DNA of 64,000 nucleotides from Candidatus Caenarcanales bacterium (GTDB lineage Bacteria; Cyanobacteriota; Vampirovibrionia; LMEP-6097): contig JAKVAO010000003.1 of assembly GCA_022447685.1 (NCBI GenBank), positions 368-64,367 of the forward strand, read 5' to 3'. The position numbers and the translations under genes were made by a program. This document shows, one piece after another, positions 33,638-46,252 of this stretch. The notes beneath the pieces are model-generated. The model saw nothing but the letters and a program-made list of their open reading frames with translations. It searched no databases and was not told where the DNA came from. Position 1 is the stretch's first letter; each line of letters begins with the position of its first letter.

Positions 33638-34010
33638 TTAACTATAATCAGCCGCTTTGCATAGCAATTCCATTTCCACCCGCCTATGGTCAGAACTATC
33701 AAAATCTTTGATACTATACTTTTCTACAAAAGTATCTTCTTTAGAACTTGGGGCAATAATATCGTGATGATACTGATTTTCTTTACCATAGGTTCCTTCA
33801 TTTAAAGCAAAAAAAGGCAAAAAACCCCTATCTTGCAGAATATTGAAAATTTTTTTATTCTCCCCTGGGAAAATATTGTTGAAGTCACCACCAAGTATAA
33901 CTCGATTTTTTCGCTTACCTCTAGATTTTGAATTTTGCTTTGCGACTTTCTTATCTAAAAATTCACTGAAATCATTTTCTTCGTTTATTAATTTGATGAA
34001 ATCCAATAAT
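33638..34010 (-). pseudogene. truncated remnant of an endonuclease/exonuclease/phosphatase (EEP) family gene
   Basis: Only the C-terminal EEP motifs are present (ILGGDFNN ... DSSDHRRV). The N-terminal catalytic half is absent, and the ORF-track N-terminus (MGFERGL) is actually encoded by the left inverted repeat of the adjacent IS. Confidence 0.5.
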
Positions 34011-34922
34011 AGACCTCTTTCGAAACCCATACTAATGTAGGTCTGGCCAAATGTGTAAATTCAGTTTAATTTGAATTTATGAGATATGAACAAGTATGTA
34101 ATAAAAAAGCAGAAGATTTTAGGCGTTTAACAGGTATAAAAAAAGAGACCTTCACAGAAATGCTGTTGATACTTAAAGAGGCAGAGATTCTCAAAATGAA
34201 AAAAAGGGGGCGACCTCACAAACTAAGCCTAGAAGATAGGCTGTTAATGGCATTAGAATATTTAAGAGAGTATCGTACATATTTTCATGTGGCAACAAGC
34301 TATGGAATATCAGAATCAAACTGTTATCAATCAATCCGTTGGATCGAAAATACTCTGATTAAATGCGGCAAATTTACTTTCCCAGGACGAAAGGAACTTC
34401 TGAAAAGTGATATTGAATATGAGGTGATTTTAATTGATGCAACTGAGTCACCAATTGAAAGACCTAAAAAAAACAGAAAAGATATTATTCTGGAAAAAAG
34501 AAAAGACATACTTTAAAAACACAAGTTGTAGTTGATCCTAAAACACAAAAAGTAATCTGTACAAGCTTTTCAGAGGGTAAAAAGCATGATTTTAAATTAT
34601 TTGAAAAATCTCAAATTAAAATCAAAGTAGAAACCAATGTCAAAGTAGATTCTGGCTATCAAGGTCTACAAAAAATTCATAATAATACGGATCTACCAAA
34701 GAAAAAAACAAAAAAGAACCCTCTAACTCCTGAAGATAAAGTTAGTAAGTCAAAGCTTGCTAGTGACAGGGTTTTGAATGAAAATGTCATAGGGAAACTT
34801 AAACGATTTAAAATTATCTCTGACAGATATAGAAATCGAAGAAAAAGATTTGGACTTAGATTTAATCTAATAACTGGAATTTATAACTTTGAGCTAAACA
34901 GGTAGGGTTTCGAAAGAGGTCT
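34011..34922 (+). mobile_element. IS5-family (DDE_Tnp_4 / Harbinger-type) insertion sequence, 912 bp, perfect 18-bp terminal inverted repeats, AAT direct repeats
   Basis: IRL AGACCTCTTTCGAAACCC at 34011..34028. IRR GGGTTTCGAAAGAGGTCT at 34905..34922 is its exact reverse complement. Flanked by AAT at 34008..34010 and 34923..34925. Internal transposase ORF present. Confidence 0.75.
34079..34905 (+). pseudogene. IS5-family DDE transposase interrupted by -1 frameshift at an A6G run
   Basis: Frame A (34079..34516) gives the N-terminal HTH part (KKRGRPHKLSLEDRLLMALEYLREYRTYFHVATSYGISESNCYQSIRWIENTL ... IDATESPIERPKK). Frame -1 from about 34495 gives the DDE part (KKKRHTLKTQVVVD ... SGYQGLQKIH ... 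RVLNENVIGKLKRFKIISDRYRNRRKRFGLRFNLI). The junction lies in GGAAAAAAG at 34492..34500. The stop codon sits inside IRR. Confidence 0.7.
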
Positions 34923-34961
34923 AATATTTAATTTTAAAGCCTGCTAGAATATTTAACTAGC

Positions 34962-35186
34962 ATGAGTTCCGGTCAAAGATATAAATTAGGTGAGATTTTA
35001 ATTAGGCTTGGTGTTCTTGATGAAGAAAAGCTGAACAAAGCTCTTGCCATCCAGGCAGATCAGGATCCTGCTGAGAAGTTCCCGATCGGAAGAATTTTGC
35101 TTGAAGAAGGTTATATAGAACCTAATGATTTGATTGAAGCAATCAAGATCCAGACAGGGCAAGCAGAACTCCCGGCACAGCCATAA
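34962..35186 (+). CDS. stand-alone MshEN / T2SE_Nter-like domain protein (putative c-di-GMP-binding)
   Basis: 74 aa with two tandem motifs KLGEILIRLGVLDEEKLNKALAIQ and PIGRILLEEGYIEPNDLIEAIKIQ. These fit the published MshEN motif RLGxx(L/V/I)(L/V/I)xxG(L/V/I/F)(L/V/I)xxxxLxxxLxxQ. No obvious SD sequence. Confidence 0.55.
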   Translation: MSSGQRYKLGEILIRLGVLDEEKLNKALAIQADQDPAEKFPIGRILLEEGYIEPNDLIEAIKIQTGQAELPAQP

Positions 35187-35190
35187 ATTA

Positions 35191-36576
35191 ATGATACTGA
35201 GTAATTCAGACCAAACTTTATACGATGAATTGAAAAATTCTAGTTACTTATCTCGTTCTAACACTACTGTTCATTACTCCAGATGCCCTGGAAGGATTAG
35301 TTTCAGTAAACACTGCGACTATGTAAATAACGATTTACTCTACATGGCTTCAGATTTCAGTATTATTGCAGCTTCTCAAGTTGAATTTAAATCTTTAGAC
35401 GCGATTCAAAACGAAGATCAAAGCAACAATAATAAATTTAAAATTCAAATCCATAACCTTAACACTAACTTTTTAGATTTCGAAACAGAATTTCATGAAA
35501 AACTTCTGAGCCAGCATAAAGAGCAATGGTATTTCTATATACTCAAGATTATTGAGCTTCTAAAAGCTAAATTTCCTGAAAATGTCAGCAATATCTCGAA
35601 AATACTACTAGTATTCAACAATAATCTGCCTCCAGCAGGTGGGATGAGCTCTTCTCACGCACTTATTTTATCCACACTACATAGTCTTAGTAATTCTTGC
35701 AAAATCACTAAATACAGCCAAATTCTCAACGACATAGACTCAGCTTCAGCTGAAGAAATCCAAGAGATACTTATTTTTTGTCAGGAAGTCGAACACGCCA
35801 AAGGCTTCAAATCAGGCTTAGGTGACCAAGCTGCTTTGCTCTTAGCTAAAAAATACAAATTTTGTTTCATCAAAATCTACCCTGAACTTCAGTATTCATA
35901 CATAGATTCACCTGAAAACCTTGCCTTTCTAATTCTACCAAGCTTGATCAAAGCTGAAAAAAGCAGTAAAGAATACCAGAATTCAGTAAAATACTTCGAA
36001 AAATACAATGAGTTGAATGATTTTTGGTTTCAAGAACTTACAGCGAATGATAGCTCTGCCTTCTTCCTCGGCGACCTACTCTATAGCCATAGCTCCGCAG
36101 ACTTATTAATAAGAATCAATGAAATAGAAGATGAGAAAATCCGCAATCTAAGCCTCTATGCTCTTGCTGAAGGCGCAAGACTTAAAGAACTCAAAGAAAA
36201 TTTCTCAGAAAATAAATTGTACAGTCATATTAATTTATCACATAGTGCCGAAATTATAGATACGAAGTATTATTCTAGGCAGGAAGAACTAGAACTTGAG
36301 TCAGATTTAAGTACACATGTAGGAGCCTATAGGTCTAGCACTGCTGTTAATGACGCTATAGCAATGAAAGCGATGAAAATAGATGGTATCAAGGCATGTT
36401 CGATAATGGGAGCTGGGCTGGGTGGCAATAATATCGCGTTAGTAGATTTTTCAAAAATTAATCAGATCATAGAAGATTTAATTAACATGTACAACAAGTC
36501 CTCGATTTTACCGAATATCAAGGAAAAACAGTTATTGATTAATACTAGTTCCAATGGACTAGAACAAATTATCTAA
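35191..36576 (+). CDS. GHMP kinase family protein (galactokinase-like), divergent
   Basis: Galactokinase-type N-terminal signature in degenerate form (PGRISFSKHCDY versus GRxNLIGEHxDY), GHMP ATP-binding motif NLPPAGGMSSSHALILS, C-terminal GHMP_C-like GAGLGGNNIALVD. Start at ATG 35191, 4 nt after the stop of the MshEN ORF; the 35134 start of the ORF-track model was rejected. Confidence 0.65.
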   Translation: MILSNSDQTLYDELKNSSYLSRSNTTVHYSRCPGRISFSKHCDYVNNDLLYMASDFSIIAASQVEFKSLDAIQNEDQSNNNKFKIQIHNLNTNFLDFETEFHEKLLSQHKEQWYFYILKIIELLKAKFPENVSNISKILLVFNNNLPPAGGMSSSHALILSTLHSLSNSCKITKYSQILNDIDSASAEEIQEILIFCQEVEHAKGFKSGLGDQAALLLAKKYKFCFIKIYPELQYSYIDSPENLAFLILPSLIKAEKSSKEYQNSVKYFEKYNELNDFWFQELTANDSSAFFLGDLLYSHSSADLLIRINEIEDEKIRNLSLYALAEGARLKELKENFSENKLYSHINLSHSAEIIDTKYYSRQEELELESDLSTHVGAYRSSTAVNDAIAMKAMKIDGIKACSIMGAGLGGNNIALVDFSKINQIIEDLINMYNKSSILPNIKEKQLLINTSSNGLEQII

Positions 36577-37023: not shown

Positions 37024-38121
37024 CTAACTATATTTCTCTGAGATTTTATTCAAGACAGTGGATTTGAGATCTTCGAAACCAGCCGAATCACAGTTGAAGC
37101 CAGCAGCACGCGCATGACCTCCACCATTGAGTTCTAGAGCAATTGCAGAGCAATCAATGTCACAGGCACTTCTTAAACTACCTTTGTAATTAGCATTGTC
37201 TTGCTTATCTTCTCTTAGATAGAGACACATATCAACATCCTTAATTCTCATCAGGTGATCCACGATCTCATCAGTGTCTTCATCTTTAGCATCGAGAGCT
37301 TCAAGTGTAGTCCTACTGGTGGTAGTATAAACTATGCTCAAGGATCTAGAATTAAGTTCCAGCGTAACCAATTCAACATTATCTAGAGCATCTCCGATCA
37401 CTCTAATCGTCCTATATGGCATTTGGTTAAAGAGGAGATTGTATAATTTACTGGGTTCAGCACCTAAATCCACTAGTTCTGAAGCCCAACCGAAAACGTG
37501 TGGAGTAGTATTACTATGTCTGAAACCTCCAGTATCAGTAAGCAAAGTTATATAAAGCAAACTTGCAAGATCCTTATCAATATTAAGCATAGATTTACTT
37601 GCCTTCAATTCAGCATCTGAAGCTATCAATGAATTTAGAGAGTATAGAATATCTTTCACAACTTGCCCAGTACAAGTAGCTTCAGCGTCAACCCAGTTCA
37701 GATCAGCGTATAGCGGATTCGATAAATGGTGATCAACATTCATAGTAATCTTAGCTTTATCCCATATATTGCCAGCGGAACCAAGTCTTTTTATAGAACC
37801 ACAATCACAACTAAAGCTCAAATCATACTCATCAAGTAGCTTAGCTTTATCTTCATCTTTCATAGAACATAGAACCTTCTCCTGATCAGGGAAAAACTTA
37901 TATACAGCCGGCACTTCATCGTGCATCACTCGATCAACTCTCTCTAAACCGAAATCCTCAAGAACTTTAGCTAAAGCAAGCATAGATCCCAAAGTATCTC
38001 CATCAGGATTGACGTGAGCCGTTACCACAGCTGTCTTCGCATTTTTAATAGCTTCAATAATTTCAGAAGAGGCTATAGATTTTTTTTCAATCTCTAGGTT
38101 TTGAGTATCTGTTCCTGGCAT
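37024..38121 (-). CDS. nrnA: DHH-family phosphoesterase NrnA-like (oligoribonuclease / pAp phosphatase)
   Basis: DHH motifs HVNPDGDTLGS and NVDHH. DHHA1 motif GGGHARAAGF. Confidence 0.8.
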   Translation of the reverse strand: MPGTDTQNLEIEKKSIASSEIIEAIKNAKTAVVTAHVNPDGDTLGSMLALAKVLEDFGLERVDRVMHDEVPAVYKFFPDQEKVLCSMKDEDKAKLLDEYDLSFSCDCGSIKRLGSAGNIWDKAKITMNVDHHLSNPLYADLNWVDAEATCTGQVVKDILYSLNSLIASDAELKASKSMLNIDKDLASLLYITLLTDTGGFRHSNTTPHVFGWASELVDLGAEPSKLYNLLFNQMPYRTIRVIGDALDNVELVTLELNSRSLSIVYTTTSRTTLEALDAKDEDTDEIVDHLMRIKDVDMCLYLREDKQDNANYKGSLRSACDIDCSAIALELNGGGHARAAGFNCDSAGFEDLKSTVLNKISEKYS

Positions 38122-39389: not shown

Positions 39390-39506
39390 CTAAGCTTCGG
39401 CAATTATACCGAAACTAGCAATCATAAGTAAACAAAGAAAGAAAACAGCATAAAAAATGATATTTTCAAAACTTACTTGTACATTATCTTTTTTCTCAGC
39501 AGCCAT
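39390..39506 (-). CDS. 38-aa single-TM micro-protein at the 3' end of the respiratory operon
   Basis: Not in the ORF track (below its size cut-off). ATG 10 nt after the stop of the MvhD-like gene with RBS GGAGAG. MAAEKKDNVQVSFENIIFYAVFFLCLLMIASFGIIAEA has one clear TM helix. Confidence 0.4.
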   Translation of the reverse strand: MAAEKKDNVQVSFENIIFYAVFFLCLLMIASFGIIAEA

Positions 39507-39516
39507 GTGTCTCTCC

Positions 39517-39981
39517 TTAATCCTCAGCAGCTTCTTTAACTAATTCATTAGCAACATGAGATTTAAATTCTTCTATACGATCTTTGAATTCATCTACTTG
39601 AACTTCAGACATCCAAAAACCTTGTAGTCTATTCTTAGGAACAGTCTTCTTAATCATAGGAGGTCTCAAACCAAGTAATCTTTCTCTACAGAATTTATTA
39701 CCTTCTCTAAAGTGGCAATCACCAATCTGACAACCCATAGCGATAACACCATCAGCTCCAGATTTGAAAGCAGATTCGATCATTCTTGGCTGAATCATAC
39801 CGCTACAAGGAACTTGAATAACATCACAGTTATCGACACCATTAAGTTTAGTTTGATCAAGTTCACCTTCTAAGTTAACACTTCTTTCACAAGCGATAAC
39901 TGCGACTCTAACCTCATCTTTAGACTTTGGTTTTTGTTCCTCAACTGTTTCTTCTTCAGCGTTTTTTACATCTTCTGCCAT
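39517..39981 (-). CDS. MvhD/FlpD-like iron-sulfur protein (methyl-viologen-reducing hydrogenase delta-subunit family)
   Basis: CDVIQVPCSGMIQPRMIESAFKSGADGVIAMGCQIGDCHFREGNKFCRERL matches the FlpD/MvhD family signature (C..C.G........AF..GADGV.+.GC..GDCH...GN). Acidic N-terminal extension. Confidence 0.55.
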   Translation of the reverse strand: MAEDVKNAEEETVEEQKPKSKDEVRVAVIACERSVNLEGELDQTKLNGVDNCDVIQVPCSGMIQPRMIESAFKSGADGVIAMGCQIGDCHFREGNKFCRERLLGLRPPMIKKTVPKNRLQGFWMSEVQVDEFKDRIEEFKSHVANELVKEAAED

Positions 39982-40022
39982 ATTTAAAATCCCTTAGTTA
40001 AATTATACTCCTAAACTTGTAA

Positions 40023-41150
40023 CTAATCTTGCAAAGCAATTCTAATATCATCCATTACTTGAGTTGATCTATAAGTAGGAAGCTCAATTGCGTCAAAGTT
40101 ACAAGCCCCAACACAAAGTCCACACTCAGCACAACGATCATTGATAACTACTGCAAGTTCTTTGTACTTACTACCATCATTTCTTGGTGCCATATAAATA
40201 GCCTCGTAAGGACAGTCGATAGAACATAATCTGCAACCTACACATGAATCTTTATTAACTGATGCTGGCTCACTATCTTCTGACTTGACGAAATTTGGAA
40301 GTAAAGTAACAACTACTAAACCAACTATCAAAGCTGCCCAAGCACCGTAGTTACCAACAAGATCTATCAGAGGAAATAACCATAAATAGAACCAATCTAC
40401 GTCCATAATAGGAATCGAAGGTAACATTGCATTGAAGTTAGCTTCTTCACCGGATAGAGCAGGAACAGCTCCGGCTATAACTAAAACAAGTCCAGCCAAT
40501 AGTGATCCAATAGCCCAGGTTACATTTACAACTGGTCTAGAGATTCTCATATAGTGAACCCATAGAAGAATTAGTAGTGCAAATGAAGTTCCGGTGTGTA
40601 AAAAGAACGACATGCTCATAGTATAGTTAGAGATTATATCTCCGTTGATAAAACCGTGAGAAAGTGTTTCACCAATGAAAGGTAATGCAGCTAAGAACTC
40701 AGCGAATTTATTAACTATAGTTAAAGATCTTTGATCCCAAACTAAAATATAACCAGAGATACCAATTACCAACATAAATAATGATAAAGCAATTCCTGAA
40801 TACCAAGCAATAATTCTATATTCTCTATATCTATCTGTGAAATAAACTCTGATAGCGTGAAGAACTACTGTTAAATACATCGCATCAGCAGCGTACCTAT
40901 GAATTCCTCTAATTACGTCACCATATGGAAGCTTTTTAGTTATATACTCAACTGACTGATAAGCCGCTTCTAGTGTAGGAGTATAATATGCAAATAGCAA
41001 TAAACCTGATAGAAAGAGCATCCACATAAAGAAGTTTGGCATTGCACCATGGTAATAAAGTATGTTTTGCTCTGATGAAAATATCTTGTTAAGTATATCT
41101 TCTAATCTTAATATTACTTTTTGTCCGCCGCGAACGATATTAGTTAACAT
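40023..41150 (-). CDS. membrane protein: cytochrome b N-terminal-like four-helix domain fused to C-terminal 2x[4Fe-4S] ferredoxin domain
   Basis: N-terminal 230 aa has cytochrome-b-like spacing of conserved His in TM helices (RGIHRY, VLHAIRVY, FFLHTG, WVHYMR) and the GYILVWDQRS motif. C-terminus has CVGCRLCSIDCP and CAECGLCVGACNF, two CxxCxxCxxxC(P) clusters. Confidence 0.65.
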   Translation of the reverse strand: MLTNIVRGGQKVILRLEDILNKIFSSEQNILYYHGAMPNFFMWMLFLSGLLLFAYYTPTLEAAYQSVEYITKKLPYGDVIRGIHRYAADAMYLTVVLHAIRVYFTDRYREYRIIAWYSGIALSLFMLVIGISGYILVWDQRSLTIVNKFAEFLAALPFIGETLSHGFINGDIISNYTMSMSFFLHTGTSFALLILLWVHYMRISRPVVNVTWAIGSLLAGLVLVIAGAVPALSGEEANFNAMLPSIPIMDVDWFYLWLFPLIDLVGNYGAWAALIVGLVVVTLLPNFVKSEDSEPASVNKDSCVGCRLCSIDCPYEAIYMAPRNDGSKYKELAVVINDRCAECGLCVGACNFDAIELPTYRSTQVMDDIRIALQD

Positions 41151-41159
41151 AAAATTTCC

Positions 41160-41513
41160 TTATTTCTTTTTAGCCTGTGTTATTTCGTAGTTCTCTAAAG
41201 GTTTTCTATTAGCGATTACAATTGCAAAGAAGGAGCTTACCAAAGCTAAACCTAAACAGATTGAGTAACCTAAAGTCGAAATTTTCTTCTGAGCTACAGG
41301 ATCTATCTCAAAACCGAGAGTACCAAGAACAGTATTAATCATTTTTAAATTATTAAATGTTCCCTCATCAAAATATGCTGGATCAGCACCTAATAATTCA
41401 AAATAGTGCATCAATGTAAACATACCACCGAAGAAGGCAAGATTTACAAGAGCGATTAGAATCGCTAACTCAACACTTATCAATCCCTGAGATTCTTTTT
41501 TACTTTCAGCCAT
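41160..41513 (-). CDS. small two-TM membrane protein (respiratory operon)
   Basis: 117 aa, two hydrophobic helices. Overlaps the upstream ORF by 8 nt. Confidence 0.45.
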   Translation of the reverse strand: MAESKKESQGLISVELAILIALVNLAFFGGMFTLMHYFELLGADPAYFDEGTFNNLKMINTVLGTLGFEIDPVAQKKISTLGYSICLGLALVSSFFAIVIANRKPLENYEITQAKKK

Positions 41514-41823
41514 TATTTAAATCCAAATCCTTTTTACTATTAGAGCGCTCTCTTAGAAACTCATAAATTTTTTCGTAAGGAGCAAATGTTGCTCTTAAAT
41601 TATCCTTGTCCTTTTCTTCAGAATAAATTTTATAAGTCATATAAAGAACTGAAGAAGCAAAAACTATAGAACTTACTATTAAAACTAAAGTAGCTTTGTA
41701 GTTTTCACCAGCTGCATAAAGCTCATCAGTACTGAAGAACTGTGACAAAGAGATAACGGATACTAGAAAAACTAACCAGTACGTTAATGATATAGGTTTA
41801 GCTTTAGTAGTATCTTTGCTCAC
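41506..41823 (-). CDS. small two-TM membrane protein (respiratory operon)
   Basis: 105 aa, two hydrophobic helices. Start overlaps the cytochrome b stop by 1 nt. Confidence 0.45.
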   Translation of the reverse strand: MSKDTTKAKPISLTYWLVFLVSVISLSQFFSTDELYAAGENYKATLVLIVSSIVFASSVLYMTYKIYSEEKDKDNLRATFAPYEKIYEFLRERSNSKKDLDLNNG

Positions 41824-43322
41824 TAAGCAGCGGTTCCTTCTTTTTTAACTAGCAATTGAGGGGTTTCAATGAACTTCTCATAGTACCAAGTAGCTACTAA
41901 TGCTAAGAATGAACCACCGTAAAATATCCACAGACGTCCCCAAGAACCATCAGCTAGGAAACTCTCACCTAAAACTCCATCTAAAGGTAAACCAAAGTAT
42001 GGAACTGTGTGAATTCTAGAAAGATAGAGGAATAGGAACAAGAAGAACATAGAAGTAAGCTTCCAGTAGTTAAATCCTCTCATCTTACAAGAGAAATATA
42101 CACCTATAGCTACAATACCAGTGCTACCAGCAATCCAATATGGAGGGTCAGTATTGATGTTTGCGATGTTAAGAATAATCAATACAGAGAAAACGATAAA
42201 GTTAATGAATCCCATTATCGAAATAGCCATAATAAGTGGTCTTTTCGTAATAGCAGTTTCTTTACCAGTATCAAAGAAAGGTAATGATAGAACTGTTACT
42301 GGAATTAGAACTGTAACAAATGTCGCTAATACTGGCTCAATATACTTATACATTTGGTAAAGAGCTAAGAAGTACCAGTCAGATAAAATCGGTAATGGAG
42401 TTACTGAAGGATTAGCTCTAGCTCCCATCTCAGCTGGGAAAATAGTTGCAGCTGCAGCGATCATTAAAATTACTAAGAAACCTTCAGTCCAAGGTACATT
42501 AAATCTTTTCTTTTTGTTGCTGTAGAAATAAAGCTCAACTACGATTAAACCAATAGTAGAAAGAGCCATATGCATAGAATAGAATCTAGTAATAGTCGCT
42601 TGACCAATCGCACTGCCACCTAAAAGGATTTGCTGCGTAGTCATACCAATATTGAAGTTGATGTATTGGTTTAAAAGCTTCATATCAAGAAGAATTCCAC
42701 CACCTTCAGATACTGGAATAGCAGGTAAGCTCGTAGGAACACCAATCTTAATCAATTGATTAACAACAGTCTCACCTAAGAATGCAAGGTTTATACCGAA
42801 TTGATCCATATAGCCAGGGAAAGTAGCAAATACTTTAGTCGCCCAAAAAGCTCTCTGGTTCCAAATTAAAAGATAACCCGATAAACCTGAATAAAAACCT
42901 AATAACATTAAGAAGAAACAGATCCATAAATTGAATTCTCTGTTTCCTTTATAGTCAGCACAGATGAACATTCTGTACATCTTTAAAGTACCAACGATGA
43001 TAAAAGCATCCGCACCATATTTGTGCATACCTCTGATCAATGCCCCAAAAGGGACATGTTCTTGGATTCTGATGATACTGTCGTATGCTTGCTCAGCAGT
43101 AGGAATATAAAAACCAACTAAAAGAGCACCTGTAGCAACAGTTACCATCCAAGTTAACCATTGAAGAGCGCCTAATTTATACCAAACATTTTCTCTTTGT
43201 TTATCAACAAAAGTCTCATCAAAAAAATCAATATTCTTAAACCTATCAAGAAAGAACTTCTTAACAGTGTCTAATGAAGGAATATATTGTGCAATATTTG
43301 AACCGATACCAGTTACTGACAT
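41823..43322 (-). CDS. cytochrome b subunit of a Rieske/cytochrome b (bc-type) complex, long unsplit form
   Basis: 499 aa. The N-terminal cytochrome b domain contains GALIRGMHKYGADAFII...KMYRMF, and the C-terminal domain contains PAEMGARANP. About 10-11 TM helices. Confidence 0.8.
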   Translation of the reverse strand: MSVTGIGSNIAQYIPSLDTVKKFFLDRFKNIDFFDETFVDKQRENVWYKLGALQWLTWMVTVATGALLVGFYIPTAEQAYDSIIRIQEHVPFGALIRGMHKYGADAFIIVGTLKMYRMFICADYKGNREFNLWICFFLMLLGFYSGLSGYLLIWNQRAFWATKVFATFPGYMDQFGINLAFLGETVVNQLIKIGVPTSLPAIPVSEGGGILLDMKLLNQYINFNIGMTTQQILLGGSAIGQATITRFYSMHMALSTIGLIVVELYFYSNKKKRFNVPWTEGFLVILMIAAAATIFPAEMGARANPSVTPLPILSDWYFLALYQMYKYIEPVLATFVTVLIPVTVLSLPFFDTGKETAITKRPLIMAISIMGFINFIVFSVLIILNIANINTDPPYWIAGSTGIVAIGVYFSCKMRGFNYWKLTSMFFLFLFLYLSRIHTVPYFGLPLDGVLGESFLADGSWGRLWIFYGGSFLALVATWYYEKFIETPQLLVKKEGTAA

Positions 43323-43324
43323 AA

Positions 43325-43942
43325 TTATGAAATACCTCCGGACTCAAGACTCTCAATAGCAAGCATTCCATCATTGACATTAAAATTAAATTTAAATGGT
43401 GAACGCGGTGCTGGACCTGAAACTACCTTCCCTCTACCTTTAGTATCTTCAAGCATAGGATCGTATACTGAAAGGTGACAAGGACAAGCAAAAACTTTTT
43501 GACCAGGATTAGGAGTGTAGTTATAACCAGCTGCAACTTCAGCTTCGTTAGGAACGAAGTTAAATACACAACCTAAATGTGGACAAACTCTACTAAAAAC
43601 TACGAACTTAGGACTACCATCAGCTTCATTTGCAGGTAAACGAACTGCCGCTCCCGGAATGGTTTTGATCTGCTGATTAATAGAAGTATATTCTCTGTTG
43701 GTTTCTTGGAACATAAAGTATTTAAAAGACCAAGGTTCAGGAAAATCATTAACATCAAACTTAATAACCTTTACAGGCTTAGGTTTATCTGGTGTTTTAA
43801 AGATCTCTAAAGTCGCTAAAGGACCAGAACTTGGTTTCAAATATCTAACAAATGGAGATAAAAGTGCGGCAGATATAGTACCAATAATAGGTACTGATAA
43901 TATTACCTTTATTAAATCTCTTTTTTCAAATTTCATGCTCAT
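43325..43942 (-). CDS. Rieske [2Fe-2S] iron-sulfur protein
   Basis: N-terminal TM anchor. Rieske boxes CPHLGC and CPCHLSVYD. Confidence 0.85.
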   Translation of the reverse strand: MSMKFEKRDLIKVILSVPIIGTISAALLSPFVRYLKPSSGPLATLEIFKTPDKPKPVKVIKFDVNDFPEPWSFKYFMFQETNREYTSINQQIKTIPGAAVRLPANEADGSPKFVVFSRVCPHLGCVFNFVPNEAEVAAGYNYTPNPGQKVFACPCHLSVYDPMLEDTKGRGKVVSGPAPRSPFKFNFNVNDGMLAIESLESGGIS

Positions 43943-43978
43943 CTCTAAATATTCCTTAAAATCTTATCTTTTAATAAT

Positions 43979-44764
43979 TTACCCTTTATTCTCAGTCTCT
44001 AATGACTTCTTATATTCTTCTAAATTCTTTCTTCCTTGATCAAGTCTATCAAGTTCTTGCGAAAAACCAAATTGACGAACGTATCTAACTAATTTCCAAA
44101 TCATTTCTTCATCAAATTTATAACCTTGATCAAAGTCAATTCTATTCTTCCATGCAGGCATAGCAGTCCATGGAATACCATGAGTTAACTCTTTGTGCAA
44201 TTTATTATCAGTTCTAGTATAAAGTCTCTCAAACATATTAAAGTTAGCAGGCATTGGCTTTAGTGCTTTATGTAAGTTACCATCACCGTGTCCTCTAGTA
44301 CCATGACATACTGCACAGTTACCACCAAAAATAGAACTCATCTTTGCAAGCTCATCAGAATTTAACTTATAATAACCAAGGATTTCAGCTCTGGTATACA
44401 TTAAAGCATCCCACATCTCATCACGACTAAGCTTATCTTTAAAACCAGGCATTCCTTTAGCATTACCATTTTTTATAACTTCATATTGTTCCTCAGGTGA
44501 TCTTGCTCTCATCATTTTTTTTGATAAGAAACCATTTTTAGGATGATCTCCATGACATTGTGCACAATTTTGTTTATAAACCCACTTACCATTTTCAATA
44601 GATGGGTCATGAGAAGGAAACTCATTAAGAGCGAGTTTCGGATCCCATGGCATTACTAAACTACTACCTAAGACTTCTTTCTCATAAGATTCAGCAGCTA
44701 AAGCTACGTTTAAAGAAACTGTGAAAACTGAGATTAGAATTATAAGCTTTATGATTTGCTTCAT
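43979..44764 (-). CDS. di-heme cytochrome c (CcoP-like soluble part or cytochrome c4-like), own signal/anchor
   Basis: Two CxxCH motifs (CAQCH, CAVCH). N-terminal MKQIIKLIILISVFTVSLNVALAA. Start set to ATG 44764; the 44818 start of the ORF-track model was rejected. Confidence 0.7.
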   Translation of the reverse strand: MKQIIKLIILISVFTVSLNVALAAESYEKEVLGSSLVMPWDPKLALNEFPSHDPSIENGKWVYKQNCAQCHGDHPKNGFLSKKMMRARSPEEQYEVIKNGNAKGMPGFKDKLSRDEMWDALMYTRAEILGYYKLNSDELAKMSSIFGGNCAVCHGTRGHGDGNLHKALKPMPANFNMFERLYTRTDNKLHKELTHGIPWTAMPAWKNRIDFDQGYKFDEEMIWKLVRYVRQFGFSQELDRLDQGRKNLEEYKKSLETENKG

Positions 44765-44783
44765 TGATTTAAATTTCTCCGTA

Positions 44784-44978
44784 TTAATATCCATAAAAAG
44801 GTATCCAGCTAATCGCACACCAAATTATTACTAATATGTACATAACGATTAAAAATAGAGGTGGCTTATTATGTCCAACTTTATATTCATTCGTAGGTTG
44901 CGCTCCATGAGGCTTTACTCCAGGTGGTAAACCTGTTGATATTGGCGACATTTCATCAAATTGATTATTATCTGTCAT
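44784..44978 (-). CDS. small membrane protein resembling the N-terminal TM segment of CcoP
   Basis: VGHNKPPLFLIVMYILVIIWCAISWIPFYGY resembles the CcoP N-terminus (GHEWDGI.E.DNPLP.WW...F...I.W...YW..YP). 64 aa, in a different frame from the downstream di-heme cytochrome c. Confidence 0.45.
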   Translation of the reverse strand: MTDNNQFDEMSPISTGLPPGVKPHGAQPTNEYKVGHNKPPLFLIVMYILVIIWCAISWIPFYGY

Positions 44979-44991
44979 AACTTAAAATCTC

Positions 44992-45207
44992 CTAGCAGTC
45001 CATCATCTCCAACTTAGCAGCTTCAATATCTTTAAACTGCCCAGTTCTAAAGCCCCAATATGCAAGAATACTTGCAATACCGAAGAAACTAATACAAAGT
45101 AAACAGAAAATGGCTATGCCTTCTTTGTTAAAAGTAGCTAAAATCCACTCTCTGAATTCTAAAAGCAGATTAGTGTCCACCATGTCCTCCTTTAGATGAT
45201 TTACCAC
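44992..45207 (-). CDS. CcoQ/FixQ-like small single-TM subunit
   Basis: 71 aa with one TM helix (GIAIFCLLCISFFGIASILAYWGF) and FixQ-like flanking sequence. An alternative ATG exists at 45183. Overlaps the ccoO 3' end. Confidence 0.4.
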   Translation of the reverse strand: MVNHLKEDMVDTNLLLEFREWILATFNKEGIAIFCLLCISFFGIASILAYWGFRTGQFKDIEAAKLEMMDC

Positions 45208-46252
45208 CTTTTTTCTTATTCTTAGCTAGTTTTTCATAATTATCAGTAATCCTTTCAGGTAAAGCAGATTGTGACTGCCAAGCTTCAGAATCAATAGTCT
45301 GATATGGTTCAATGATAGGTGATTTATCCTGAGGTAGTGTCTTCAAGAAAGCAACTAGATACCACATTTGCTCAGGCTCTAACTTAAGTTTCCATCTAGG
45401 CATCCTCGATCCTGGAACACCTTCAGCAACTCTCCAGTACCAAGTTTTATCAGAGTAAGCTTTGTAGTAAGGTCTTGAGAAGTTAGCAGGTTTTTTAGCC
45501 ATTGCTAAAGCATTCGGACCATTACCCAAACCATTCAAACCATGACACACAGCACAATTTTGTCTGAAGATACCCGCTCCAGCATTAGCAGCAGCAGCAC
45601 TATCAACATTAGGTTTGTGATGCTCAGATGCATGCCAGAAAGCCTCATCAGCTTCAGGGTAATAAGCTTCATAAATATGTCTGTTCTCAGGATCATCGAA
45701 TCTTTTTCTTCCTAAAGTCTGTAGATAAGAAACTAAATAACCTAAGTCATCATCAGACAAGTAGCTAAATGAAGGCATAATAGAACCTGGATTGTACTCT
45801 CTAGGGTTCTTCAAATGACCAATGTGCCATTCATCTGGAAGTTTGCCACCTTCATTAGATAAATCAGGACCAGTTCTAGATGTACCTAAAACATTAGGAG
45901 TTTCGTTAGCGTAGTCGCCAGCGTGAACTCTAGAACCAAAATCTCTATCCTGAGGTCTAACAAATTGTGAGTGACAATAAAAACAGCCTTCTCTTACATA
46001 GATTGCTCTACCTTTACCGGCATCATTTAATACAGGTAAGCCTTTTTTATCTCTTTTTATAGTTCCGTCTGCTTGCTTCTCAACATACTCCATCGCATAT
46101 TTACTAGGCTCAGACTTTAATGAAGGTAAATTAGGTATCGCGACGACTACTGTATAAATTATCGCAAATGAAAATGCAACAACTATAGCAGGCAGGATGT
46201 AACCTTTTGCACCTACTGATTTATTTTCGTTTGAATTCTTATCTTCTGACAT
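45170..46252 (-). CDS. ccoO: cbb3-type cytochrome c oxidase subunit II (CcoO) fused to an additional C-terminal mono-heme cytochrome c domain
   Basis: N-terminal TM, CcoO heme motif GCFYCHSQFVRP plus GPDL. A second CxxCH (CAVCHG) lies in the C-terminal 150 aa. Gly/Lys-rich tail. Confidence 0.8.
   Translation of the reverse strand: MSEDKNSNENKSVGAKGYILPAIVVAFSFAIIYTVVVAIPNLPSLKSEPSKYAMEYVEKQADGTIKRDKKGLPVLNDAGKGRAIYVREGCFYCHSQFVRPQDRDFGSRVHAGDYANETPNVLGTSRTGPDLSNEGGKLPDEWHIGHLKNPREYNPGSIMPSFSYLSDDDLGYLVSYLQTLGRKRFDDPENRHIYEAYYPEADEAFWHASEHHKPNVDSAAAANAGAGIFRQNCAVCHGLNGLGNGPNALAMAKKPANFSRPYYKAYSDKTWYWRVAEGVPGSRMPRWKLKLEPEQMWYLVAFLKTLPQDKSPIIEPYQTIDSEAWQSQSALPERITDNYEKLAKNKKKGGKSSKGGHGGH

Follow-up and report, generated by a model that had tools for sequence, protein, structure and literature searches.

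Can a nucleotide-binding module of some 70 residues act as a receptor in its own right, and on which protein would it then act? This question is raised by two adjacent genes in a 64,000-nucleotide (nt) stretch of DNA from Candidatus Caenarcanales bacterium (contig JAKVAO010000003.1), which is referred to as the window in the following. The first gene, here named msh74, encodes a protein of 74 amino acids (aa) resembling MshEN_N, the N-terminal module by which the ATPase MshE of Vibrio cholerae binds cyclic diguanylate (c-di-GMP). The second gene encodes a galactokinase-like protein of the GHMP superfamily, and a preliminary description had proposed that the pair represents a c-di-GMP-responsive regulator of a sugar-kinase-like enzyme or pseudo-enzyme. 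Our analysis leads to a related reading: the two genes form a conserved bicistron of the Vampirovibrionia, in which a single-domain MshEN_N adaptor possibly regulates the kinase that is translated along with it. We put this chain forward tentatively, its chances as a whole being somewhat short of even.

The msh74 open reading frame (ORF) is made up, as already recognised in the preliminary description, of two tandem copies of the 24-residue MshEN motif (aa 8-31 and 41-64, Table 1). In the database-search form used by Wang et al. 2016 the motif is written [RKPN]hGxxhhxx[GAS]hhxxxxhxxxhxx[QNKRYWST] (PMC5013675), and both copies match this relaxed pattern. The strict consensus is missed by both of them, by motif I through the K for R replacement that had been pointed out before and by motif II through P, I, Y and I. 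When the window was translated in all six frames, three relaxed matches were obtained, namely the tandem pair and one stray, whereas 100 shuffles gave on average 0.03 per window; the tandem pair is thus far beyond chance. On the level of profile models the MshEN assignment was borne out by one model and left without a match by another: NCBIfam NF053729 matches both copies with 46.7 bits (cut-off 38, E 2.1e-12), and PF05157 (T2SSE_N, now named MshEN) gives no match to the protein at E<=1. Among the matches examined, PF05157 matches other proteins only beyond their N-terminal motif repeats and therefore apparently models the C-terminal subdomain, which is not contained in the msh74 protein, as the latter terminates 10 residues past motif II. 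Consequently, the failure of PF05157 was not taken as a refutation of the MshEN identity. Pfam models of other names touch the same motifs: DUF4388 (PATAN) and FumaraseC_C cross-match aa 9-30 and 40-67 of the msh74 protein at or below threshold, and DUF2949 does so with MshEN_N motifs in some proteins (P0148-P0279), suggesting that all three models contain an MshEN_N-like helical hairpin.

Homologues of the msh74 protein, 60 in number, are 67-82 aa long and 66-99% identical. In an alignment of 27 family members the motif-defining positions (h-G, G, h and Q) are invariant, and in motif II even the non-consensus positions, which the pattern leaves free as x, do not vary (R44, E48, E53, P54, N55, D56 and K62). 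This extra constraint, which goes beyond nucleotide binding, suggests a protein-binding surface, for example an interface with a partner. The family can be described by the signature P[IL]G[RQ]ILLE..I.PND[LI]I[EQD]AI[KR].Q. When 1.84 billion representative proteins were searched with the profile, 3254 relatives were retrieved, the majority of which have multiple repeats or are linked to an ATPase; singletons of 72-83 aa are very few, and these carry the family signature. The AlphaFold2 model based on the family alignment comprises four helices (residues 9-15, 21-33, 42-49 and 54-64) with a mean predicted local distance difference test score (pLDDT) of 88.9. Its best Foldseek matches in the PDB are c-di-GMP-bound GSPII-B of Thermus PilF and MshE (9gl5, 8pfa, 5htl; probability 1.00), onto which the model superposes with a root-mean-square deviation of 1.4-1.7 Å over 60 columns; the accompanying E-values are weak owing to the short length. 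By sequence the best PDB match is Thermus PilF 301-358 (GSPII-C, E 1e-6), in the alignment of which the inter-motif spacer is shorter than that of the msh74 protein. In view of the motifs, the profile match and the predicted fold we regard the msh74 protein with considerable confidence as an MshEN_N module.

Whether such a module can be expected to bind c-di-GMP may be judged from the characterised receptors. Residues 1-62 of V. cholerae MshE, that is, MshEN_N alone, bind c-di-GMP with a dissociation constant (KD) of 0.35 µM (PMC5013675). MshEN_N and the msh74 protein have in common the two tandem 24-residue motifs and, according to the predicted fold, the four-helix bundle; the msh74 protein differs in standing alone, without MshEN_C or an ATPase, in carrying K and P in place of R at motif position 1 and in having a longer inter-motif spacer. 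Both of these position-1 substitutions have precedent, since they are found in proven binders of Thermus PilF: GSPII-B, with K167 at position 1 of motif I, binds c-di-GMP with a KD of 6 nM, and GSPII-C, with P335 at position 1 of motif II, is reported to have an affinity similar to that of MshEN (KD 500 nM; PMC11731258). Thus, the two PilF domains that are nearest to the msh74 protein, GSPII-C in sequence and GSPII-B in fold, share its non-consensus residues, whereas they differ from it in being part of an 889-aa traffic ATPase and in including the C-terminal subdomain. A documented non-binder is XpsE, in which binding was lost via many substitutions at key motif positions (PMC5013675). Architectures restricted to MshEN_N were catalogued by Wang et al. 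2016 (supplementary table 4), an example being the (MshEN_N)2 protein cce_1044 of Cyanothece (PMC5013675). Like the msh74 protein, cce_1044 consists of the N-terminal motif module alone and comes from the cyanobacterial phylum, but it is a tandem dimer of modules and not a single module of about 70 aa. Neither the msh74 signature nor its linkage to the genes discussed below (ffs and the GHMP kinase) appears in that catalogue. On balance, the msh74 protein is a putative c-di-GMP binder, and binding is rather probable judging from its conserved motif positions.

Table 1 Features of the msh74-kinase cassette and of related loci. Positions refer to the window unless a related locus (L number) is given, in which case they refer to that locus.
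Feature	Position	Strand	Remarks
msh74, stand-alone MshEN_N-type protein, 74 aa	34962..35186	+	ORF, NF053729, homologues, AlphaFold2, Foldseek
MshEN motif I KLGEILIRLGVLDEEKLNKALAIQ, K8-Q31 (aa 8-31)	34983..35054	+	K or R at position 1 family-wide
Inter-motif spacer ADQDPAEKF, 9 residues	35055..35081	+	MshE spacer: 5 residues
MshEN motif II PIGRILLEEGYIEPNDLIEAIKIQ, P41-Q64 (aa 41-64)	35082..35153	+	almost invariant in the family
Spacer ATTA, 4 nt, msh74 stop to kinase ATG	35187..35190	+	
GHMP-superfamily kinase of the galactokinase clade (predicted), 461 aa	35191..36576	+	PF00288, homologues, AlphaFold2, Foldseek, profile-to-PDB search
Kinase motif I variant PGRISFSKHCDY	35287..35322	+	R35, S39, K40, H41, D43, Y44 invariant
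GHMP motif II, phosphate-binding loop PPAGGMSSSHAL	35629..35664	+	G151, S153-L158 invariant; full length
QEVEHAKGF...GLGDQ	35782..35829	+	E201, D212 invariant; aligned to Gal1p EH...GGMDQ
GHMP motif III GAGLGG	36409..36426	+	invariant in the family
Decayed element, probably of the IS5 family, 30-nt inverted repeats 33999-34028 / 34905-34934	33999..34934	+	
IS5 transposase N-terminal fragment (HTH_Tnp_4)	34079-34516		first 145 codons intact
TGcTAGAAT, possible extended -10	34942..34950	+	11 nt upstream of msh74 start; common to L001
p108, acidic protein, 108 aa	36655..36981	+	78 nt downstream of the kinase; lineage-specific, highly conserved
ffs	L007 5310-5405; L066 7626-7717; L068 7682-7775; L069 5886-5977; L070 5829-5921; L071 5825-5921; L072 5879-5973; L074 262-354; and others		
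ffs-kinase-giant protein arrangement	L067 7908-16023; also L026, L027, L034, L020, L003/L015		

The kinase gene starts with the ATG at 35191, four nucleotides after the TAA stop codon of msh74 (35184-35186), just as had been described. This gap is compatible with translational coupling. A TTG codon at 35134 was considered as an alternative start and rejected, as the homologues align from the ATG. Both strings on which the galactokinase likeness had originally been based are present, GRISFSKHCDY at aa 34-44 and PPAGGMSSSHA at aa 147-157, and the likeness itself was corroborated by Pfam GHMP_kinases_N (PF00288), which is matched with 30.3 bits at a cut-off of 22.3, and by the fold. GHMP_kinases_C is matched weakly (12.9 bits), and the equivalog cut-offs for galactokinase are not reached (TIGR00131, 61.9 versus 226.65 bits; PRK03817, 63.7 versus 443). 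The AlphaFold2 model of the kinase has a pLDDT of 90.3 and a predicted template modelling score of 0.91, and all of its 50 best PDB matches in Foldseek are galactokinase, N-acetylgalactosamine (GalNAc) kinase, Gal1p or Gal3p. With galactokinase, GalNAc kinase and Gal1p the protein shares the fold (Foldseek E ~1e-20 to 1e-22), both motif II and motif III, the residues at the aligned positions of the catalytic Arg and Asp, and from motif I the H-x-D-Y element; the identity amounts to 13-19%, and bacterial galactokinases are about 70-110 residues shorter. An uncharacterised GHMP protein of 498 aa deposited as 'AbGHMP' (PDB 9ulx/9uly) is matched by the family profile with E 5e-13, and a literature search found no paper on it.

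Homologues of the kinase, of which 68 were found, allow the state of its signatures to be assessed. In an alignment of 28 homologues (32-55% identical) the segments SKHxDY, GxSSSHAL, GLGD and GAGxGG are invariant, as are the individual residues P33, R35, S37, S39, K40, H41, D43, Y44, G151 and S153-L158 as well as E201, G209-D212, G407-G409 and G411-G412. Evidently, the signatures, which had been called degenerate in the preliminary description, are not so but represent an invariant variant that is specific to this family. Profile alignment of the family to yeast Gal1p pairs these segments with PGRVNLIGEHIDY, GLSSSAA, EH...GGMDQAA and GAGWGG, and similar alignments cover GalNAc kinase and archaeal galactokinases; R35 and D212 align to the corresponding segments of Pyrococcus furiosus GalK, GALK2 and Gal1p. 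In human GALK1 the catalytic residues are Arg37 and Asp186, and in galactokinases the Asp of the EH...GGMDQ segment, to which D212 is aligned, acts as catalytic base. Throughout the family, the residues at the positions of the catalytic Arg, the catalytic Asp and the Mg-binding Glu are kept. With respect to these residues, the invariant motifs, the phosphate-binding loop of full length and motif III, the protein is predicted to be a catalytically active sugar kinase of the galactokinase clade, which we consider highly probable, and a pseudo-enzyme, as formerly envisaged, is unlikely.

The substrate of the predicted kinase is probably not plain galactose. In comparison with the motif GRxNLIGEHxDY, R, H, D and Y are unchanged in the family, one residue is missing and Gly-Glu is invariantly replaced by Ser-Lys, K40 being aligned with the Glu. 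In crystal structures of GalK this motif I Glu contacts galactose. The replacement of Glu by Lys in the sugar pocket reverses the charge and therefore argues against plain galactose; the invariant Ser-Lys-His for Gly-Glu-His probably reflects another substrate. It may be speculated that the pocket Lys is compatible with a substrate carrying an anionic substituent. The characterised members of the galactokinase clade phosphorylate the anomeric position of their substrates.

As to the distribution of the two genes, homologues of both were encountered only in metagenome-assembled genomes (MAGs), which are labelled Vampirovibrionia, Melainabacteria, Caenarcaniphilales or Cyanobacteriota, are unclassified or are probably mislabelled. 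By homology, both families appear restricted to the Vampirovibrionia (Melainabacteria). Many TPA_asm MAGs that contain the gene array are titled 'uncultured Gammaproteobacteria bacterium' (L015-L021, L025, L026, L028 and L034), which is probably a taxonomic mislabel. For the linkage of the pair, one genome per species was scanned for the kinase, resulting in 28 family loci, two of which are cut by contig ends. The two-gene cassette recurs in these genomes: in 21 loci, corresponding to 21 of the 26 evaluable ones, the kinase is immediately preceded by msh74, which is absent from 5. A metagenome scan centred on msh74 gave 19 loci, three of them too short to judge, and here the kinase directly follows msh74 in 13 (13 of ~16 evaluable) and is absent from 3. 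Thus, the adjacency is found in about 80% of the loci, and the case that the preliminary description had named as a refutation, a cassette lacking a conserved neighbourhood in other genomes, does not apply. In 27 loci the distance from the msh74 stop to the kinase start varies between -11 and ~50 nt, mostly 0-20 nt.

Comparison of gene tables and tblastn results furthermore revealed that the pair is part of a conserved block which comprises, in this order, a divergently transcribed M16 peptidase gene, atpC, ffs, msh74 and the kinase. The atpC product is the F1 epsilon subunit of ATP synthase (TIGR01216, 100.9 bits at a cut-off of 67.25), and ffs is the gene of the signal recognition particle (SRP) RNA (RF00169), which occupies the ~180-nt gap between atpC and msh74. 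In ~24 loci, 22 by Rfam and 2 more by sequence similarity, ffs is located 13-160 nt upstream of the msh74 start. In several loci this gap amounts to 13-28 nt and leaves no room for a promoter of its own, implying that msh74 is co-transcribed with a stable RNA gene; ancestrally, the pair was probably transcribed with or just after ffs. A regulatory-RNA search of the related loci did not find a c-di-GMP riboswitch, and it was this search that found the SRP RNA gene instead.

From these findings the following mechanism may be envisaged. The msh74 protein would correspond to the 53-residue c-di-GMP-binding core of the MshE/PilB-type ATPases, devoid of the C-terminal subdomain and of any output domain. 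One c-di-GMP would be bound between its two motifs, as in isolated MshEN_N, and the ligand-bound bundle would then dock on a partner via the invariant surface of helices 3 and 4. The most economical candidate for this partner is the kinase encoded on the same message, whose activity would thereby be tuned to the level of the second messenger. An adaptor principle of this kind is known from the single-domain PilZ proteins, c-di-GMP receptors that lack an output domain and work through association with partner proteins. The principle proposed for msh74 is the same, in that a small ligand-bound receptor docks on a target enzyme, whereas the two have neither fold nor binding mode in common. That the kinase is the direct target of the msh74 protein is possible, at a probability clearly below even.

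Several observations weigh against this reading. What connects the msh74 protein with regulation of the kinase is gene order. Across lineages the msh74 protein is 66-96% identical and the kinase 31-54%, and a kinase that evolves this fast fits poorly with an invariant docking surface on its supposed regulator. No MshEN_N-GHMP fusion was present among ten checked profile matches with an N-terminal MshEN_N. Moreover, the most persistent neighbour of msh74 is ffs and not the kinase. In GCA_964352085.1 and GCA_964438425.1 msh74 lies with atpC-ffs (L069 and L070, respectively) and the kinase elsewhere (L003 and L005). The distant members L072 and L074 retain ffs upstream; the gene downstream in L072 is not a kinase, and the L074 contig of 1.3 kb is too short to judge. 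The loci of another clade have the kinase gene at most 2 nt behind ffs and next to it the gene of a ~2200-2265-aa protein in which no Pfam domain was detected; msh74 is absent there. The c-di-GMP part of the chain is weakened as well. The 9-residue spacer of the msh74 protein exceeds that of the characterised binders, and neither the window nor 615 kb of related loci yielded an ORF with canonical GGDEF or HD-GYP motifs. The sole GGDEF-like gene seen, in L070, has a degenerate active site (GEDKF). Within the class, c-di-GMP signalling is supported by a single remark in the literature, a preprint mentioning HD-GYP domains in one Melainabacteria genome, and this is the main gap of the c-di-GMP reading.

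The GGDEF-like gene of L070 (878-2158, GCA_964438425.1) also encodes a REC domain and is situated beside the M16 / atpC-ffs-msh74 array. In the literature searched we found nothing that links GHMP kinases with c-di-GMP or describes the msh74 or kinase family, and likewise nothing on Melainabacteria with galactokinase or on Vampirovibrio with diguanylate cyclase.

The split loci, the persistence of ffs and the slow evolution of msh74 leave room for a different and more conserved partner. In that case the msh74 protein would be a nucleotide-binding adaptor of some other conserved component, connected for example with the SRP or with the epsilon subunit of ATP synthase, and the kinase would be a passenger at the downstream end of a unit started by ffs. 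Such an arrangement would agree with the position of ffs close to msh74 in loci as distant as L072 and L074, with msh74 staying at atpC-ffs where the kinase is found elsewhere, with its occurrence without the kinase in L087 and L092, and with a helix 3-4 surface that is invariant next to a fast-evolving kinase. Nevertheless, we consider it somewhat unlikely: the spacing between msh74 and the kinase is as tight as in translational coupling and is kept in about 80% of the loci over deep divergence, adjacency to an RNA gene may mean the sharing of a promoter only, and the divergent M16 peptidase is equally conserved in the block, so that position need not mean shared function. A second possibility concerns the ligand and not the partner, as the msh74 protein might have the MshEN_N fold without nucleotide binding and serve as a structural or protein-binding module like the N-domains of GspE and XpsE. 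XpsE as a documented non-binder, the failure of both motif copies to match the strict consensus, the length of the spacer and the lack of an evident diguanylate cyclase in the window and the 615 kb of related loci all point in this direction, and MshEN-like N-domains do bind protein in the Xanthomonas citri PilB-PilZ complex, which is among the fold matches. Loss of binding in XpsE is, however, associated with substitutions at key positions of a type not seen in msh74; here h-G, G, h and Q are conserved, both position-1 substitutions occur in proven binders and the NF053729 cut-off is exceeded, which makes a non-binding module unlikely.

It could also be argued that the GHMP protein is not an enzyme at all but a pseudo-enzyme or ligand sensor controlled by the msh74 protein. 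A model is available in yeast, where Gal3p, a galactokinase-fold protein without kinase activity, takes part in a regulatory protein-protein interaction with Gal80p. Gal3p is among both the fold and the profile matches of the kinase family, motif I departs from GRxNLIGEHxDY and the scores for the galactokinase equivalogs lie far under their cut-offs. But the departures are invariant across the family and not decayed, motif III is conserved along with the positions that correspond by alignment to the catalytic Arg, Asp and Mg-binding Glu, and the phosphate-binding loop, which is shortened in Gal3p (GGGLSS--AF in the profile alignment), has its full length in the kinase family (GLSSSHAL). Furthermore, Gal80p is unrelated to the msh74 protein. 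A Gal3p-like role is accordingly very unlikely. We therefore retain, at the tentative strength given at the outset, the bicistron of an MshEN_N adaptor and an enzyme that it may regulate.

The cassette of the window itself deviates from the ancestral arrangement on its upstream side. The insertion sequence (IS) that had been noticed immediately upstream is a decayed copy, probably of the IS5 family, and is bounded by inverted repeats (Table 1). HTH_Tnp_4 matches the N-terminal fragment of its transposase with 64.7 bits, and the NCBIfam model for IS5 transposases scores 82.4 bits versus a cut-off of 140, residues 3-136 of 285 being intact and the remainder fragmented; the nucleotide identity of the element to annotated IS5 transposase genes is 66-70%. 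Neither ffs nor atpC nor the M16 gene was found in the window, whose RNA genes are two tRNAs only, and synteny with the closest relative, L001, begins at 34936. Hence, the ancestral upstream context has been replaced, and the element has separated the cassette from atpC/ffs, 27 nt before the msh74 start codon. The sequence TGcTAGAAT between the element and msh74 could, with low confidence, serve as an extended -10 promoter element. A generic promoter and terminator scan around the cassette gave counts at chance level. On the other side of the element, an ORF of 130 aa (33638-34030, minus strand) enters the left inverted repeat with its 5' end; no family matches this ORF, which probably represents what is left of a gene after truncation by insertion or rearrangement.

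Downstream of the kinase, the genome encodes the small acidic protein p108, for which no Pfam or NCBIfam family was found. It is 94% identical in L001, L007 and L008, and in L005/L025 it is 69% identical and still located after the kinase, though msh74 stayed with ffs there. The protein database contains only 6 clusters of p108, and a 100%-identical protein is named from a Candidatus Caenarcaniphilales MAG, which places the window in this order. The Caenarcaniphilales lineages that agree by 94% in p108 agree by only 54% in the kinase. In the Caenarcaniphilales p108 may be a third member of the unit, and it may be a partner of the kinase. Other lineages encode a 124-aa protein after the kinase, and homology of p108 to it was not detectable. 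Next to p108 lies an NrnA-like DHH/DHHA1 phosphoesterase gene (37024-38121, minus strand), which is syntenic with the cassette throughout the Caenarcaniphilales and whose best NCBIfam model, bifunctional oligoribonuclease/PAP phosphatase NrnA, is matched below cut-off. Enzymes of the NrnA type can degrade pGpG, the breakdown product of c-di-GMP; the link between this gene and the cassette is a thematic one only. The PADLOC defence models matched none of the msh74, kinase, p108 and DHH proteins.

A respiratory gene cluster (39517-46252, minus strand) encodes, besides an FlpD-like protein, two cytochromes b, one of them fused to 4Fe-4S ferredoxin domains, as well as a Rieske protein, a di-haem cytochrome c and a FixO-like subunit; it is unusual for FlpD to be combined with a ferredoxin-fused cytochrome b. 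Over 39391-42876, which takes in the genes of the FlpD-like protein and of cytochrome b and reaches as far as L001 extends, the nucleotide identity to L001 is 89%. The kinase evolves much faster than the genes that flank it: relative to L001/L007 its identity is 53-54%, as against 96% (msh74), 94% (p108), 84-85% (DHH protein) and ~97% (cytochrome b genes).

As for its significance, the most far-reaching form of this reading is that msh74 founds a class of single-domain MshEN_N second-messenger adaptors, co-transcribed with ffs across the Vampirovibrionia and related lineages, by which c-di-GMP or a dinucleotide of similar kind would be coupled to an anionic-sugar 1-kinase, and hence to the synthesis of envelope or exopolysaccharide, or else to the SRP/ATP-synthase neighbourhood; in both cases the output of the second messenger would be one that is not described for any receptor type. 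We regard this extended form as quite improbable. Receptors are where knowledge of c-di-GMP is limiting, and in some lineages few have been recognised. As a receptor, an MshEN_N core of ~70 residues would rank with the smallest modules so far described for c-di-GMP, and the adaptor principle of the single-domain PilZ proteins would be extended to a second fold. The pairing of msh74 with the kinase could thus reveal a new regulatory link from a second messenger to sugar activation. The host lineages are mostly uncultured, with little experimental biochemistry, and for two uncharacterised families of these non-photosynthetic sister lineages of the cyanobacteria the cassette provides a first functional lead.

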